64,000 nt of DNA from Candidatus Saliniplasma sp. Its GTDB lineage: Archaea; Thermoplasmatota; Thermoplasmata; Halarchaeoplasmatales; Halarchaeoplasmataceae. This document shows, piece by piece, positions 153 through 43,540 of the stretch. A model generated the notes under the pieces. It searched no databases, was not told the origin of the DNA, and worked only from the letters and a program-made list of their open reading frames with translations. Made by a program: the position numbers and the translations under genes. Location of the stretch: contig JAWOGF010000059.1 in assembly GCA_046497075.1 (NCBI GenBank), positions 3,040 through 67,039 of the forward strand, written 5' to 3'. Every line of letters starts with the position of its first letter. Positions within the stretch are counted from its first letter, which is position 1.

Positions 153-322
153 AATATTTCTCCTCTTTACTTTTATTGGCAAATTAAATCATTAACTATC
201 CCTATTGGATCGTACTATCCAAAGAGGACAAAACCTTCACTATAGATACTTTATTAATAATTTATTGTCGTTATTATTCGGATAGGAATAAATCTAAATA
301 GTGTTTTAAACAATATTCAGAT

Positions 323-868
323 ATGTTGAAAGACATAGGGGAAATTCGAGCTGTTAGGAAGAGACTCGGATTGACTCAAACAGAACTAGCTGAAAGATCT
401 GGTGTTAGTCAATCACTGATCGCCAAGATCGAAAACGGAAATACTACGCCATCTTATGAAAAGGGAAGGAAGATATTGGACAAACTCGAAGAGATGATCG
501 AACAAAATTCTATGAATAAGAAAGTAAAAGAAGTACAATCAAAAGATATACTTTCACTGGAAAAAAACGATAAGGTGGAAACCGCTCTGCAGATCATGGA
601 GGAAAATGCTGTTTCACAACTACCCGTTATAGATGGTGGATTGTTGAAAGGAGGCGTAACTGAAAGTAGTCTATTGAAAAACTATGAGACAATAGATAGA
701 GACGTTCCCGTGGAAAAGATAATGGACCCTCCATTCCCACTTATAGATGAGAATGCAGGAATAGAAACTGTCAAAAAATTACTGATGGATCAACCCTGTG
801 TTTTAACATCAAGAGAAGGGCGGATAATAGGTATCGTTACAAAAGTGGATATCTTAGGTGAGATATGA
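323..868 (+). CDS. HTH (XRE-type) transcriptional regulator with C-terminal CBS domain pair
   Basis: The N-terminus LGLTQTELAERSGVSQSLIAKIENG is a typical XRE helix-turn-helix. The C-terminal half has CBS-like repeats (VSQLPVIDGG..., RIIGIVTKVDIL). The stop codon overlaps the start of the next gene in an ATGA arrangement. Confidence 0.7.
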   Translation: MLKDIGEIRAVRKRLGLTQTELAERSGVSQSLIAKIENGNTTPSYEKGRKILDKLEEMIEQNSMNKKVKEVQSKDILSLEKNDKVETALQIMEENAVSQLPVIDGGLLKGGVTESSLLKNYETIDRDVPVEKIMDPPFPLIDENAGIETVKKLLMDQPCVLTSREGRIIGIVTKVDILGEI

Positions 869-27951: not shown

Positions 27952-28836
27952 ATGCAAAAGGCCAATAAACTTAGACAGGTCATCGTTTCCTTTCTATTCA
28001 TCATCATCTTAGTATCTATTACACAAGGCGCTGTTTCGGAAGCTTATTCTTCGTCTGATTTTGATGTAGACGTAGATTTAGAGGATGAAGTGAAGGTTTC
28101 GATATCTCACGATGACAATTTGTTGTACAGTATAGATTATAAAAATTTTATCATAACTACTGAAGATAGAACCTATGATATTCCACTTCACGAGTGTGAT
28201 TGGACGATAGATAAAAGAGAGATAAAAGATGAAGCCTTTCCCCACACAGATATACAACTGCAGACTGAATTAAGAGACGGAAATGATTTCATCGGTGATC
28301 TCAATTTCGATATCGATGTTTATTACAGTCGAGATGTTTCAGAAGTCACATTCTCTTTCACTCTAAGCGATATCGAACATCTCAGCGGTGGGATGATAGA
28401 TATCGTCAAGGATGTTAGTACGACTGGGTACATGATAGACGAACCTGAATTAGATAAGGAATACTACAAATTTTATTATCAGGACGGATCTACAGGATTA
28501 TACCGTTGGAACAATGAACTGGTTTTTAACGGCGAGTCCTCTGAATTAGATTTCTGGTCTGAAGATGAAAGGAGATTGATAATTCAAGGTGATTTCGGAT
28601 CCGATATAGATGAAGTATCAATGGAACCAGTTGAAATAGAAAAAACAAACGCTGGAGTAGCAGTTCCCGTTCCGGAACCTTACGACCATCTACCTTCATT
28701 CGTTATCGGACTTATGATCGGGGCTGGAATAATAGTGGGTATCTTGGCGGAAAAGAGAACTCAATTCTATAAAGAAAAGGATCCAGAAAAGGTCGTGAAA
28801 TTAGAGGATTCTTATTACTACAAAGGGAAGGATTAA
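27952..28836 (+). CDS. Secreted or C-terminally anchored acidic surface protein (hypothetical)
   Basis: It has an N-terminal signal peptide, an acidic body and a C-terminal hydrophobic helix (FVIGLMIGAGIIVGILA) followed by basic residues. Confidence 0.4.
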   Translation: MQKANKLRQVIVSFLFIIILVSITQGAVSEAYSSSDFDVDVDLEDEVKVSISHDDNLLYSIDYKNFIITTEDRTYDIPLHECDWTIDKREIKDEAFPHTDIQLQTELRDGNDFIGDLNFDIDVYYSRDVSEVTFSFTLSDIEHLSGGMIDIVKDVSTTGYMIDEPELDKEYYKFYYQDGSTGLYRWNNELVFNGESSELDFWSEDERRLIIQGDFGSDIDEVSMEPVEIEKTNAGVAVPVPEPYDHLPSFVIGLMIGAGIIVGILAEKRTQFYKEKDPEKVVKLEDSYYYKGKD

Positions 28837-29503: not shown

Positions 29504-31426
29504 TTATAAATCTTTTCTCTCACGGAAAAATTCTTGGATCGATGATACGGGTTCTTCGGTTAAGAATAGATCTGGAAGATAACTGTTGAAGTGTACAGCA
29601 CGCTCATCTAAGATGACTGCAGCACCTAGATCATTTTCACTCCGGACCAACCTCCCGGTTGACTGGAGTATCTTCCTGACGGTCGGTGCCTTTATGGTGT
29701 ATTCCCAGCCCTTATTGAACTTCATATCGTAATAATGTCTGAGACCTTTCTGTCTAGCGGTCGGTTTTGGGTAAGGGATCCCTACGATCGCTGCAACTTC
29801 TAATTCATCCCCGGGAAAATCCATACCTTCACTGATCCGACCGCCGATGACCGAGAATAGTACACCACCATCGGATTTGAACTTATCAACGGTTTCCATC
29901 AATTCCGGTTGTGTCATGCCCTGATGTTCTACCGATATATCGTATTCGTCCATGATCGAACCACCTACTTCGTTCATCAACCTGTAGCTTGGAAAGAACA
30001 CTATGGTGTTTCTCTCGATCGTTTCAACAAGGTTCCTAACCTCCTGACGAAGCTTTTGGATCATCTTGTCACTGCGCTGAAGGGCTTCATACTGTGTGGA
30101 AACTCCCTCTTTATAGAATATCTTTTGATTCTCCTCTGGAAAGGGGCTTGGGAATATCTTGATATCGGTATCGTAAGGTAAACCTACTGAATCACGGTAC
30201 TCATCTAAAGGTTCTAGAGTCGCTGATTGATGGACCGATGCATGACAGTGGTTGAGTACTTCTGTCACGTTACTTGGATCGAGACAGAATCCTTCTAGTG
30301 ATGGGTTGTCACCTCCGTTAACCAGCTTGATATACTCTGCTTGATCCAGGGACAACCATACCTTTAAGAACTCTGATAGAGAGTGTATGTATGAACGAGG
30401 GAGTTTCCTTTCTTTCCTTTTCTTTTCCTGGACTATCTCACCATGGACCTTCATATCTTTGATAAGTCCCTTGAACTGGTTGGTGTTGATCCCCATTATG
30501 TTGAGAAGTTCACTTCTTACTTCGTTAGGCGGTATCAAACCATCCTCTTCTATCACGAACTCCTGAACCACGTCTAAAAGTATGTTTTCGAACAATCTAC
30601 AGAACGATGAGATCGTGGTATTTTCGTTCAATTCTGGGTCCCCTATTTCTTGTCCCTCATCGAGTGCACGTTCTAACGATGTGTTGGTGATCTCGATGGA
30701 AGCTAAGTCACGGGCATAATCAGGTAAATTGTGTGCCTCATCGATAACGACTATAAGTTCTGGTAATTCCACGTTCATCCATTCTAACAAATTTCTTCGG
30801 ATGTATGTCAAAAAGAAATAGATATACGGTGCCACTAAAAGGTCGGCTTCTGGAATAAGAGCTTTAGAAAGTTCATATGCACAGAGCTCGTTCCTCTGAC
30901 AGTAATCTAGAAACTCATCGACAGTCGGGATATTTTTCTTAGCCCAAGATCTAACTTCGTTAAGGTCACACTGAAGCATACCGGCGTAGTATGGACACGA
31001 GTAAGATTCACTATCTTCCTGGATAGCTGTTCTTACTTCCTTCTTTCTATCGCTGCAGTATTTAGAAAGCTCCTCGGCAGTACCCTGTTGCAGATCTTCA
31101 TTATCCTGGGCTAAGAGGCACGTGTTGTTCCTACCCTGGATACCGAGTGCGTAGAAATCACCTATCTTCCTGGTTTCGTAGATCACCTGCTTCTGCTGGG
31201 AATTTGTTCTGGTAAGGTAGACAACCTTCTTATCATGCTTCTCAGCATAACTCAATACCGGTGTCAAAGTGCATATAGTCTTACCGGAACCTGTCGCCGC
31301 TTGATATACCGTGGATTTCCCCCTGTTCAGATTTTCTAATATGGTTTCCATGATCTTTTTCTGGTTCTTACGGGGATCATAAGGGAAAATTCCGTTCATA
31401 GGGGAGGACAACTTGTTCTCCATCAA
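29504..31426 (-). CDS. XPD/Rad3-family (DinG-like) 5'-3' DNA helicase with Fe-S domain
   Basis: Walker A is QAATGSGKT. The DEAH box is VIDEAHNL. Four Cys lie in the Fe-S insertion (CLLAQ...C...CPYY). C-terminal helicase motifs are present. Confidence 0.8.
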   Translation of the reverse strand: MMENKLSSPMNGIFPYDPRKNQKKIMETILENLNRGKSTVYQAATGSGKTICTLTPVLSYAEKHDKKVVYLTRTNSQQKQVIYETRKIGDFYALGIQGRNNTCLLAQDNEDLQQGTAEELSKYCSDRKKEVRTAIQEDSESYSCPYYAGMLQCDLNEVRSWAKKNIPTVDEFLDYCQRNELCAYELSKALIPEADLLVAPYIYFFLTYIRRNLLEWMNVELPELIVVIDEAHNLPDYARDLASIEITNTSLERALDEGQEIGDPELNENTTISSFCRLFENILLDVVQEFVIEEDGLIPPNEVRSELLNIMGINTNQFKGLIKDMKVHGEIVQEKKRKERKLPRSYIHSLSEFLKVWLSLDQAEYIKLVNGGDNPSLEGFCLDPSNVTEVLNHCHASVHQSATLEPLDEYRDSVGLPYDTDIKIFPSPFPEENQKIFYKEGVSTQYEALQRSDKMIQKLRQEVRNLVETIERNTIVFFPSYRLMNEVGGSIMDEYDISVEHQGMTQPELMETVDKFKSDGGVLFSVIGGRISEGMDFPGDELEVAAIVGIPYPKPTARQKGLRHYYDMKFNKGWEYTIKAPTVRKILQSTGRLVRSENDLGAAVILDERAVHFNSYLPDLFLTEEPVSSIQEFFRERKDL

Positions 31427-31503: not shown

Positions 31504-31968
31504 TTGATAACCCTAAATTTGTATAGAGCACTTATGGAGAACAGCAGTATCAAAGTCGAAATGGAAAATTTAGAGGGCTATAAGTTCAAAGCTAAATTCG
31601 ATAAAGAAAGCATGGGCGAGATCATAACCGACGAAACCGAAGAGGTGGGTGGTGATGAGGAGGGACCCAATCCCGGGAGGCTGTTAGCCGCTGCGTCCTT
31701 GAACTGTCTCATGGCTAGTTTGATATTCTGCTTAAAGAAAAAGAGAGTTGATTTGAAGTCTTTGAAGGGAGAAATAGAGGGGGCCGTTGAAAGAATAGAT
31801 GGAAGATTAAGGATAACTCATTTAGATGTGCATATATTTCCAGGGATCGGTGAGGATGATAAACAGAAATTAGAGAAATGTGTAGATATCTTCGAGGATT
31901 ACTGTATAGTAACTCAAAGTATCAGGAACGGTATCGATGTGGATGTCGAAATAGAACCAGAGGTGTGA
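31504..31968 (+). CDS. OsmC/Ohr-family protein
   Basis: GPNPGRLLAAASLNCLMASL matches the OsmC fold with its conserved Cys. The length is 154 aa. Confidence 0.7.
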   Translation: MITLNLYRALMENSSIKVEMENLEGYKFKAKFDKESMGEIITDETEEVGGDEEGPNPGRLLAAASLNCLMASLIFCLKKKRVDLKSLKGEIEGAVERIDGRLRITHLDVHIFPGIGEDDKQKLEKCVDIFEDYCIVTQSIRNGIDVDVEIEPEV

Positions 31969-32085
31969 ACCATACCGCAGACTACTCTTTTCGATGAAAG
32001 CAACAATAGTGAAGAACTGACTCAGATTTCCGAAGAGATCTCCAGATGCACTCTCTGTCCCCTTCACGAATCACGTACAAATACA

Positions 32086-32544
32086 GTGCCCGGAGAAGGA
32101 GATGACGATGCAGAGATCATGCTCATAGGGGAGGGGCCGGGTAAGAATGAAGATGAGCAGGGGAGACCTTTCGTTGGACGGGCTGGAAAGTTGTTGACAG
32201 AATTGTTGAGATCCGCCGGTTTATCTCGTGCAGAGGTTTTTATTACAAATGTTGTTAAGTGCCGACCTCCGGAGAATCGTGATCCTCGGAAAAGTGAGAT
32301 CAAAACCTGTAATCCCTATTTAAATCGGCAGATAAAAGTTATCGATCCAAAAGTCATCGGAACTCTAGGTAATCACGCCACTGAAACTCTGGTGGGTGAG
32401 AAAGGTATCTCAAAGATCCACGGAGAGGAGTTCGAATACGAAGGTAAGATCCTCATCCCACTCTACCATCCTGCTGCGGGACTTTACAACCCTAACTTGG
32501 TTTCAGAGATGAAGAAGGATATCAAAAAATTGACTGAGTATTAA
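32086..32544 (+). CDS. udg: Uracil-DNA glycosylase, family 4. The true N-terminus probably lies upstream, at roughly 31990-32020.
   Basis: GEGPGKNEDEQGRPFVGRAGKLL and FITNVVKCRPPENRDP are family-4 UDG motifs. The conserved N-terminal Fe-S ligands (EISRCTLCPLHESRTN) lie in frame upstream of the track's GTG start. No ATG, GTG or TTG precedes them. Confidence 0.7.
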   Translation: MPGEGDDDAEIMLIGEGPGKNEDEQGRPFVGRAGKLLTELLRSAGLSRAEVFITNVVKCRPPENRDPRKSEIKTCNPYLNRQIKVIDPKVIGTLGNHATETLVGEKGISKIHGEEFEYEGKILIPLYHPAAGLYNPNLVSEMKKDIKKLTEY

Positions 32545-32598: not shown

Positions 32599-32673
32599 GG
32601 GCCCATGGCTTAGGTTGGTTATAGCGTCCGGCTGATAACCGGGAGGTCGAGAGTTCAAATCTCTCTGGGCCCA
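32599..32673 (+). tRNA. tRNA-Ile (anticodon GAU)
   Basis: The cloverleaf was drawn by hand. The acceptor is GGGCCCA/UGGGCCC with discriminator A. The D-arm is GCUU...AGCG. The anticodon stem UCCGG/CCGGG carries loop CUGAUAA. The T-arm is GAGAG-UUCAAAU-CUCUC. Confidence 0.8.
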
Positions 32674-32686
32674 CTTCCAATATTTT

Positions 32687-33514
32687 CTATTGCTCATTTT
32701 CCGGAAGGTAGAGTTCACATGTTTCATACTGAAATCTACTTCCGTTTCCTAAAACATGAACTCCGATCCCACTAACTGACATATTGTCACCGAGTTCTAG
32801 TTCTGGAACATTGCTTTTTGTTAGATGTCTGCCTTCTATAGCAACTACGTTACCGCTCCCGATGACTTCGAATTCCATTTTATCAAAATCCCAAACTGCA
32901 CCAGTTCTTTCACCTAATCCGATACCCAAAAAGGCGGGATTTTCACTTACCACTTGTATCAAACGTGGAAAACGTCCTCTCTCTGCGAAGTGAGTATCTA
33001 TGAATACTTCTTCTATAAACCCCAAACCCTTGATCAGGTCGACTTCACCTTTGTAAAAATGTCGTTTGATGGTCCCCTCGAATATCATGGTCTCAGTAAG
33101 ACATACCGCACCTGCACTCGTTCCACCTACCAGGGCACCCTGATGAAACTTTTCTTTGATCTTCTCAACCATCTCTGTACCTTGTAAAAGGTCAGTTATC
33201 CTGAGCTGATTGCCACCGGTTATAAAGAAGGAATGTGCCCTATCTAAATCTTCGAGAACCTTTTCAGAATTGGCTTCACTTCTACTTTTAGGGTTTAAAA
33301 CAACCGTGTTGGCCCCAATATCATTGAAAAGACGTGAATAAATCTCCCCACTTCTGTCCGGTTCACCGCTTGGTGTAGGTATTATACCGATGGTGGGCTG
33401 TCCGTCAGATATGATCTGGGAGATGTTAAAAAATTCTTTGAACAGTGGTTCAGTGGGTGAGATACTAACATTCCCTCCCATCGTTATTATCTTTCCAACT
33501 CCCATTTGAATCAC
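32687..33514 (-). CDS. Peptidase S51-family protein (cyanophycinase / peptidase E-like)
   Basis: The Ser-nucleophile context is GGTSAGA. FITGGNQ is present. The 275-aa length is typical of cyanophycinase. Confidence 0.6.
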   Translation of the reverse strand: MIQMGVGKIITMGGNVSISPTEPLFKEFFNISQIISDGQPTIGIIPTPSGEPDRSGEIYSRLFNDIGANTVVLNPKSRSEANSEKVLEDLDRAHSFFITGGNQLRITDLLQGTEMVEKIKEKFHQGALVGGTSAGAVCLTETMIFEGTIKRHFYKGEVDLIKGLGFIEEVFIDTHFAERGRFPRLIQVVSENPAFLGIGLGERTGAVWDFDKMEFEVIGSGNVVAIEGRHLTKSNVPELELGDNMSVSGIGVHVLGNGSRFQYETCELYLPENEQ

Positions 33515-33554: not shown

Positions 33555-33890
33555 TTATGGTATTTTATCTTGTATGATGATCACATCTTCAAGGTAGTCC
33601 CTCTTTGTTTTTTCTCCATCGGTCCTTATGAATTTCTCTCCCTCGACTTCGACCAATGATACTTTCTTATCAACCTGGAAGTCGAATTGGTCATCATCCG
33701 GTGAGATCAAGGTTGCGTAGAAACATCCGTCTTCCAACTTCTTCAAAAGGTTATCTCTCTCTTCCGGGTAGGGATAGCCTACAGCATGATCATCCATGTG
33801 TTCATGGGTCCTGACCTTCTCGAAGAGTTGATCTTTTTTATCGTATTTTACAGCGGTTATCAAGTAATCGATCTTATCTATATCCATCAA
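33555..33890 (-). CDS. Hypothetical acidic protein (111 aa)
   Basis: It is translationally coupled directly downstream of the GIY-YIG gene. No recognisable motif was found. Confidence 0.35.
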   Translation of the reverse strand: MMDIDKIDYLITAVKYDKKDQLFEKVRTHEHMDDHAVGYPYPEERDNLLKKLEDGCFYATLISPDDDQFDFQVDKKVSLVEVEGEKFIRTDGEKTKRDYLEDVIIIQDKIP

Positions 33891-43372: not shown

Positions 43373-43446
43373 GGGCCCATAGATCAGTTCGGAAGATCGA
43401 TACCTTCGCAAGGTATAGGCCGTGGGTTCAAATCCCACTGGGTCCA
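43373..43446 (+). tRNA. tRNA-Ala (anticodon CGC)
   Basis: The acceptor GGGCCCA/UGGGUCC carries the G3:U70 wobble, the Ala identity element, and discriminator A. The D-arm is GAUC-AGUUCGGAA-GAUC. The anticodon stem AUACC/GGUAU carries loop UUCGCAA. The T-arm is GUGGG-UUCAAAU-CCCAC. Confidence 0.8.
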
Positions 43447-43540
43447 CTTCGCTATTGCTCGTGTACCCAGCGGCATTTGAAAACTGTGAGGAATAAATTC
43501 CTCACGCTCGGTAATTTTCTTCGAAAATTCCCTCGTCCCA

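Follow-up and report, generated by a model that had tools for sequence, protein, structure and literature searches.

A near-cognate AUA start codon is proposed for the family-4 uracil-DNA glycosylase gene behind OsmC in Candidatus Saliniplasma and its relatives

Where does translation begin when the essential N-terminus of an enzyme is encoded ahead of every canonical start codon? The question is raised by the family-4 uracil-DNA glycosylase (UDG) gene in a stretch of 64,000 nucleotides (nt) of Candidatus Saliniplasma sp. (contig JAWOGF010000059.1, positions 3,040 to 67,039; hereafter the window), a halophilic member of the Thermoplasmatota (PMC11332174). Immediately upstream lies a gene of the OsmC family, the stop codon of which, TGA at 31966-31968, is followed in the same frame by TIPQTTLFDESNNSEELTQISEEISRCTLCPLHESRTNTVPGEG... 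and the remainder of UDG, ending at 32544. As a preliminary description of the window had pointed out, and as the sequence and the list of open reading frames (ORFs) bear out, the 117 nt at 31969-32085 hold no ATG, GTG or TTG in the UDG frame, the first such codon being the GTG at 32086, and alignment to the structures 4zbx and 1l9g confirms that the CxxC motif, with two of the four Fe-S ligands, falls inside this stretch. By a rough estimate, 39 random codons lack a canonical start with a chance of ~0.15, which is not improbable alone; the run is meaningful because conserved, essential coding sequence falls inside it. Comparison with related loci indicates that the UDG gene is intact and quite probably starts at the near-cognate AUA of 31972-31974, in the following arrangement.

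31534..31968, + strand: OsmC-family gene of 144 amino acids (aa), from ATG 31534 to the stop TGA at 31966-68; the protein is NCBI MFO7792630.1 ('Candidatus Saliniplasma sp.').
31960..31965, + strand: Shine-Dalgarno (SD)-like GAGGTG, which coincides with the two final OsmC codons and precedes ATA by 6 nt.
31966..31971, + strand: OsmC stop TGA and the 3-nt spacer ACC, between GAGGTG and ATA.
31972..31974, + strand: ATA, the putative UDG initiation codon, aligned with ATA/ATC/ATT in 10 lineages and with ATG in locus L103.
31972..32544, + strand: the full family-4 UDG coding sequence as proposed, 190 aa plus stop, with a PF03167 domain, a match to PDB entry 4zbx and an AlphaFold 2 (AF2) model.

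The assignment is carried by comparison of the DNA of 14 orthologous loci, taken from ENA, JGI, NCBI and Logan assemblies, among which we count 10 lineages with ATA, ATC or ATT (ATH) at the start column; the window and its closest relatives L001/L002 are counted as one, and the lineages are related rather than independent. All 10 share the synteny of XPD, OsmC and UDG and the same succession of elements, GAGGTG, OsmC stop, 2-3 nt, ATH and then x-CAR-ACN-ACN/AAR-CTN-TTY, with ATG, GTG or TTG at the start column in 0 of the 10. The codons are distributed as follows.

Start column ATA, 7 lineages: the window with L001/L002; L003; L084-87; L088; L004; L099; L097/98.
Start column ATC, 2 lineages: L096; L100.
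Start column ATT, 1 lineage: L095.

What lies between the OsmC stop and this column is informative. In the TGA lineages (8 of the 10) the single spacer codon differs non-synonymously (ACC, AAC, ACT, ATC, GAC, AAT). In L097/L098, represented by two independent assemblies, and in L100, OsmC instead ends GAG GTG TAA with a spacer of 2 nt (CT or AT), so that UDG is out of frame with OsmC, and the stretch upstream in the UDG frame is devoid of any start-like codon. Thus, ATH would be the sole available initiation codon, since upstream of it there is either only a stop and a variable codon or an overlapping frame free of starts. L004 lacks a canonical start even ahead of the catalytic GEGPG. Counting the sister lineage L103-105 as well (70% identical, same synteny), the gap from stop to start is 3 nt behind TGA and 2 nt behind TAA in 11/11 lineages. 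The junction of that sister lineage reads GGAGGT TTGA CGG ATG GTA CAG ATG ACG TTT, which places an ATG exactly at the ATH column, 3 nt past the OsmC TGA, and because L103 has ATG there, the ATA position is regarded as the homologous start site. Congruent with this, the first Met of the Prodigal-called protein P0055 (MAKQATLL) aligns with the Ile of L097 (IAKQQTLF), and P0022 (MAEQTKLL) starts at or beside the ATH column. The preliminary description had supposed that an ordinary ATG in relatives implies a local error in the window. Such an ATG indeed occurs twice, at the position of an internal CTG in L001/L002 and at the ATA column in L103; a local error does not follow, however, because the ATH state is clade-wide.

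Could the start nevertheless have been lost, through an error of sequencing or assembly or a recent mutation, leaving a decaying pseudogene or only the 152-aa product from GTG 32086? The missing canonical start, the short Prodigal-type models in many relatives and the ATG that L001/L002 show against the CTG of the window would all agree with such a loss. On the other hand, the gene displays every mark of function. The UDG superfamily domain was recovered with E=1.8e-37 (PF03167, cut-off 24.3 bits), the best match among solved structures is 4zbx with E=2.6e-58, and the AF2 model reaches a predicted local distance difference test (pLDDT) score of 94.7. Numbered from ATA as residue 1, the first two cysteines lie at the following position.

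32047..32058, + strand: the CxxC motif, C26 at 32047-49 and C29 at 32056-58, invariant in 43 homologues.

C26, C29, C97 and C113 are all invariant in these 43 homologues and have counterparts in the aligned cysteines of 4zbx and 1l9g; from the published UDG4 structures, we take them to be the 4Fe-4S ligands. Equally invariant are the active-site motifs GEGPG at 53-57 (G53, E54, P56, G57) and HPAA at 166-169 (H166, P167, A168, A169). Across the ATH lineages the ORFs are intact at 185-194 codons, that of L095 leaving the contig end after 155 codons, and the ratio of nonsynonymous to synonymous divergence (dN/dS) is 0.05-0.14 where dS is measurable, with synonymous sites saturated between most lineages. 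Judged by these sequences, UDG is an intact gene that purifying selection maintains, with uracil excision as the activity predicted from the family. The N-terminal 38 codons including CxxC are conserved as well, with invariance where it is to be expected. The 152-aa product would miss two of the four cluster ligands, and L004 has no canonical start before GEGPG at all. Because the gene is intact, dN/dS is low and dS is saturated, the ATH state must be long-lived and reflects neither sequencing error nor decay; a read error is further excluded because independent assemblies of close relatives have the identical sequence. Of the options raised in the preliminary description, a sequencing error is contradicted by the ATH state shared by 10 lineages of independent assemblies (ENA, JGI, NCBI and Logan), and gene decay by the intact ORFs and the dN/dS values. 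We accordingly regard loss of the start as very unlikely.

Readthrough or recoding of the OsmC TGA, yielding an OsmC-UDG fusion of ~335 aa, was another such option. It finds a footing in the window and seven further lineages, where OsmC and UDG share a frame interrupted by one TGA, which is always kept and never replaced by TAA or TAG. The lineages that end OsmC with TAA and read UDG in the other frame contradict it, since L097/L098 and L100 conserve the SD, the ATH codon and the peptide behind it all the same. Moreover, L103 has its ordinary ATG 3 nt past the OsmC stop, the codon between stop and ATH differs non-synonymously, and no protein of fusion length occurs among the best 120 homologues, the longest being 242 aa. 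TGA also closes other ORFs of the window, such as ORF 302..868 with its TGA at 866-868, in line with what had been described. An Rfam search of the junction returned no element, including any resembling a selenocysteine insertion sequence (SECIS), and its only match was the downstream tRNA. Programmed readthrough and selenocysteine recoding were therefore rejected, as the frame is not kept in all orthologues and no recoding signal was found; a fusion protein appears highly improbable.

Further support for initiation at the ATH column comes from the segment directly behind it.

31978..31992, + strand: codons 3-7, Q-T-T-L-F, a short motif resembling a PCNA-interacting protein (PIP) box, on a flexible N-terminal tail.

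Across the lineages, the codons of x-Q-T-(T/K)-L-F differ almost only synonymously (CAG/CAA; ACT/ACC/ACA; CTT/CTC/CTG; TTC/TTT), and RNAalifold found 0 conserved pairs across the junction. Considering this near-synonymous variation and the lack of a conserved RNA structure or Rfam element at the junction, the constraint acts on protein. The peptide would thus be translated, and therefore initiation has to take place at or upstream of it.

This bears directly on a start further downstream within the 117 nt, at CTG 32017 or ATC 32038, with the QTTLF segment as an untranslated leader. The codons in question, together with the first canonical start, are these.

32017..32019, + strand: CTG, Leu16, internal, 10 codons ahead of Cys26; the column holds CTG, TTG, CTT, CTA, TTA and CTC, with ATG in L001/L002 and L103.
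32038..32040, + strand: ATC, Ile23, the start used by NCBI; P0134 begins here with MSRCTLC; an I/V column (ATC, GTC, GTA, ATA, GTG).
32086..32088, + strand: GTG, the first canonical start, giving a 152-aa product without CxxC; used by the Prodigal-type calls P0004, P0036 and P0139.

Either codon would retain CxxC, the NCBI model of this genome (MFO7792631.1, 168 aa) uses ATC 32038, and at the CTG column the closest relatives L001/L002 have ATG while L084 and L097 have TTG. This column, however, comprises six Leu codons; four of them (CTT, CTA, TTA, CTC) bear no resemblance to a start, and neither CTG 32017 nor ATC 32038 is preceded by an SD. Furthermore, the near-synonymous variation of QTTLF, for which no conserved RNA structure accounts, marks the upstream segment as translated. 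The CTG start was consequently rejected as an ordinary hydrophobic, synonymous Leu column and the ATC start as an I/V column without SD; we consider a downstream start unlikely, and the NCBI start at ATC 32038 is probably wrong, judging from the aligned sequences. A non-canonical start had been among the options of the preliminary description, with ATA 31972, CTG and ATT as candidates. Comparison supports ATA, and leaves CTG and ATT without support. The coordinates given for ATA (31972-74) and the in-frame ATT (32026-28) were correct; the CTG, placed at 32020, lies at 32017-32019. The ATG that replaces this CTG at Leu16 spans 982-984 in L001 and 173-175 in L002, and from the sequence these two could make a second, shorter UDG isoform without the QTTLF tail beside the ATA form.

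An ordinary ATG might also be concealed by a frameshift. The out-of-frame ATG 31994 (MKATIVKN*) is located 23 nt ahead of the CTG and is followed by AAA, and one extra A would convert it to MKSNNSEEL... in the UDG frame, either as a true frameshift or through an insertion-deletion error in the A-run. This ATG nonetheless merely arises where a D codon meets an E codon (GAT GAA), L084, L088, L004, L096 and L100 lack it, its region is identical in independent assemblies, and the QTTLF codons upstream of it are conserved in the UDG frame. A hidden frameshift or homopolymer error at ATG 31994 was rejected on the ground that the ATG is not conserved, and its chance is close to nil.

The lack of an obvious start is mirrored in the public annotation, which disagrees with itself. 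Non-canonical starts have already been assigned here by NCBI, inconsistently: the ATA start with 190 aa (MPQTTLF...) in two sister metagenome-assembled genomes (MAGs; MGM0404870.1 and MFW6037925.1), an ATT start in a partial model (P0032 / L095), and the ATC start at codon 23 with 168 aa in three MAGs, this genome included. The callers behind ENA, JGI and Logan give 175, 152-153 or 141 aa for near-identical Saliniplasma UDG genes, and many close relatives are called short, at 140-153 aa (MLIGEGPG... or VPGEG...). That so many relatives are called short suggests, from their sequences, that the lack of a start is shared by the whole clade. All Prodigal-type callers cut the gene down to 141-153 aa and thereby drop Fe-S ligands; a consistent ATH-start model of 185-194 aa would correct the whole orthologue group. 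In a subclade resembling Natronoplasma (P0014, P0043, P0054, P0068, P0118, P0025) many calls are likewise short (MLIGEAPG..., VPGEG...), and the long call P0014 carries an N-terminal extension, ...SRGVIITEQLQL, which looks as if GAGGTGTAA and ATH codons behind it had been read in another frame. The ATH architecture may extend to this subclade.

We then turn to the SD-like element. Archaeal SD sequences follow GGAGGTGA, which is complementary to the 3' end of 16S rRNA, and GAGGTG matches its core. The 16S anti-SD of the host itself lies outside the window, and the SD was judged by the archaeal consensus. Within the window, pieces of this consensus stand 3-8 nt ahead of several ATG starts, such as those at 865, 14987, 27952, 39465 and 47616. 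At the junction, GAGGTG is invariant in 10/10 ATH lineages, 5-6 nt ahead of ATH, with GGAGGT in L103. Among the window ORFs of at least 100 codons, that of UDG is the only long one in which a strong SD and a near-cognate codon occur well ahead of the first canonical start. Relaxed start usage throughout the genome was also considered and dismissed, as a scan of all window ORFs of at least 100 codons gave no second candidate with a strong SD and a near-cognate codon. In a more distant UDG4 lineage (L101 2519-2545, L102 798-824), the gene upstream of UDG is a flavin reductase in place of OsmC. Both loci preserve GTAGAGGTG-N6-ATC-x-CAR-ACA with hardly a base changed, here within an ORF whose called start is an ATG or GTG further upstream. 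That L101/L102 keep the motif without OsmC suggests that it serves UDG initiation, beyond encoding the OsmC C-terminus; in these two loci it may be what is left of the 3' end of OsmC, or alternatively an SD retained for the ATC start, as far as their sequences tell.

Several points weigh against initiation at ATH. GAGGTG also codes for the conserved E-V at the C-terminus of OsmC, which means that its conservation cannot be ascribed to the SD alone. The lack of ATG from the start column is weakly significant in a test of low power, with P ~0.07-0.27 according to how many lineages count as independent, assuming neutral, saturated third positions. Drift between ATA, ATC and ATT would also be expected of an internal Ile, and the first-codon status is argued by the upstream stop and the frame data alone. 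All support for the N-terminus is comparative, and the organisms are without exception uncultured MAGs. Minor initiation downstream may take place in some lineages (ATG16 in L001/L002; TTG16 in L084 and L097). Finally, a review of archaeal initiation gives only AUG, GUG and UUG as starts (PMC7531240). As regards codon choice, the internal Ile codons of the window UDG are 10 ATC, 2 ATT and 2 ATA; ATC is the commonest internal Ile codon in L003, L084, L088, L004, L096 and L100 as well, and not in L097, L099 and L095. ATA as first codon in 7 of 10 lineages against an internal bias for ATC weakly hints that the first codon stands outside internal codon usage. A neighbour-joining tree interleaves ATH lineages with lineages of canonical start and is poorly resolved as to one or several origins of ATH. 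Searches for additional loci contributed little: a DNA-pattern scan of metagenomes returned only two known JGI loci and four chance matches, and a protein scan of contigs with the generic pattern EQGRPFVG retrieved mostly UDG4 genes of Chloroflexota, L004 being the only useful locus.

With AUA as the probable start, initiation can be envisaged as follows. Given the 3-nt gap, OsmC and UDG are almost certainly co-transcribed. The ribosome would bind GAGGUG in the 3' end of OsmC, or terminate at the OsmC UGA without leaving the mRNA, and initiator Met-tRNA would be set on the AUA 6 nt downstream of the SD with a third-position mismatch; initiation may thus be divided between coupling and de novo binding. 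The product would be a 190-aa enzyme composed of the flexible QTTLF tail, a helix (residues 6-24) leading into CxxC and an ordinary UDG4 core. AUH codons being poor initiators, such a start would probably hold UDG at a lower level than OsmC and tie its synthesis to the translation of OsmC. A low level would plausibly suit an enzyme that creates abasic sites.

The elements of this scheme have precedents. In Escherichia coli, initiation at AUA, AUC or AUU reaches 1-2% of that at AUG, with Met inserted at the N-terminus, and the confirmed natural near-cognate starts are those of infC and pcnB only (10.1101/063800). The AUU of infC and pcnB resembles the present case in that an essential or functional gene lacks AUG, GUG and UUG, that AUH is located behind an SD, and that the weak start presumably limits expression. 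It differs in that archaeal factors (aIF1, aIF1A, aIF2) check the start, that the codon drifts between AUA, AUC and AUU instead of being fixed as AUU, and that the UDG start lies 2-3 nt past an upstream stop and is proposed from sequence comparison. For archaea, ribosome profiling of Haloferax volcanii yielded ~30% near-cognate codons among putative alternative sites, which were set aside (PMC7261190). Our survey of the literature found no AUH start described for an archaeal gene, the one hit being a laboratory ATG-to-ATA mutation of Halobacterium nadA. The proposed UDG start would thereby join the known class of near-cognate start codons, an assignment that is well supported by the aligned loci, and would be notable as archaeal and clade-conserved. 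A long-lasting near-cognate start under purifying selection would constitute comparative evidence for productive use of AUH by archaeal ribosomes.

Coupling, in turn, is established for gene pairs of H. volcanii and E. coli that undergo termination-reinitiation, where it requires very short distances and 13-14 nt already costs 40-60% (PMC6728339, PMC10666635). The likeness lies in co-directed genes, a start few nt from the stop and an SD inside the end of the upstream gene; in contrast, the pairs investigated are overlapping (ATGA, TGATG) with canonical starts, while OsmC and UDG are separated by +2/+3 nt, the start is near-cognate and the coupling is presumed. By this comparison the 2-3-nt gap is within the working range of termination-reinitiation in both organisms. 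The junction offers a natural test case in which an SD, post-stop spacing of 2-3 nt and AUH occur together. A classic coupled pair with a canonical start is found elsewhere in the window, where the TGA of ORF 302..868 overlaps the ATG at 865 of a 1514-codon ORF (ATGA), with AGGTGA 3 nt upstream.

Whether the AUH start is moreover a selected regulatory device is a different matter. It could have been kept through synonymous saturation throughout an entire order, 'Ca. Halarchaeoplasmatales' with its relatives among the halophilic Thermoplasmatota, fixing a low UDG:OsmC ratio via termination-reinitiation or conferring sensitivity to stringency factors such as aIF1. We put this forward tentatively and as rather doubtful; if true, the start would be a clade-conserved archaeal near-cognate codon, functionally analogous to the bacterial infC AUU, and a tractable case for studying the fidelity of start-codon selection in archaea.

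The position of the start also determines the N-terminal tail. The solved UDG4s of Sulfolobus tokodaii (4zbx), Thermotoga maritima (1l9g/1vk2) and Thermus thermophilus (1ui0) belong by sequence to the same fold family (E=2.6e-58 to 1e-46), and their four cysteines and catalytic motifs align with those of the window UDG, but they start ~10-15 residues ahead of CxxC, from ordinary start codons, and have no QTTLF tail. In the AF2 model, residues 1-10 have a mean pLDDT of 52 and residues 1-4 fall below 50, while helix 6-24 runs into CxxC; the low-confidence tail is compatible with binding of PCNA. In human UNG2, the PIP box is situated at the extreme N-terminus. The QTTLF tail shares a short motif of the Q/A-x-T-L-F type with PCNA-interacting UDGs of archaea and eukaryotes (Pyrococcus furiosus 'AKTLF', S. 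solfataricus UDG1, P. aerophilum UDGa and human UNG2); the motif of the window UDG differs in occupying residues 3-7, right after the start, and in lacking the aromatic pair, and that of P. furiosus UDG is internal. The canonical PIP box Qxxhxxaa was not recovered, since QTTLFDES has Q1 and L4 and instead E and S at 7-8. Short PIP-like motifs are on record for P. furiosus UDG (AKTLF) and ligase (QKSFF) (PMC4858679), and interaction of archaeal UDG4 with PCNA is documented (PMC4858679, PMC6202378). By analogy, the QTTLF tail is probably a PCNA-binding motif, in which case the choice of start codon would set the presence of the tail and hence, probably, PCNA recruitment.

The surroundings of the pair are conserved as well. 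OsmC itself matches PF02566 over the full profile length (E=3.5e-18), and its left neighbour is a helicase.

29504..31426, - strand: divergent XPD/Rad3-type helicase (Pfam DEAD_2, HBB, Helicase_C_2), left neighbour of the OsmC-UDG pair.

The XPD helicase holds this position also in L003, L084, L088, L095, L097, L100 and L103. Some lineages have a gene for a pyridoxal-phosphate enzyme (PALP) between XPD and OsmC, at 1354-2366 in L084/L085 and at 1061-2068 in L103, and because the junction is unaltered despite this insertion, OsmC-UDG is seen to be the conserved unit. Downstream, a tRNA-Ile(GAT) at 32599-32674 follows UDG at 55 nt, and a sub-threshold Rfam match to 'Plastid-ycf2' on the minus strand is the antisense of this tRNA; a tRNA-Ala(CGC) is found at 43373-43447. 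Beyond, a convergent Peptidase_S51 gene (cyanophycinase/peptidase E-like) occupies 32687-33514 on the minus strand, and two further ORFs, of 111 aa at 33555-33890 (minus strand) and 294 aa at 27952-28836 (plus strand), have no Pfam match.

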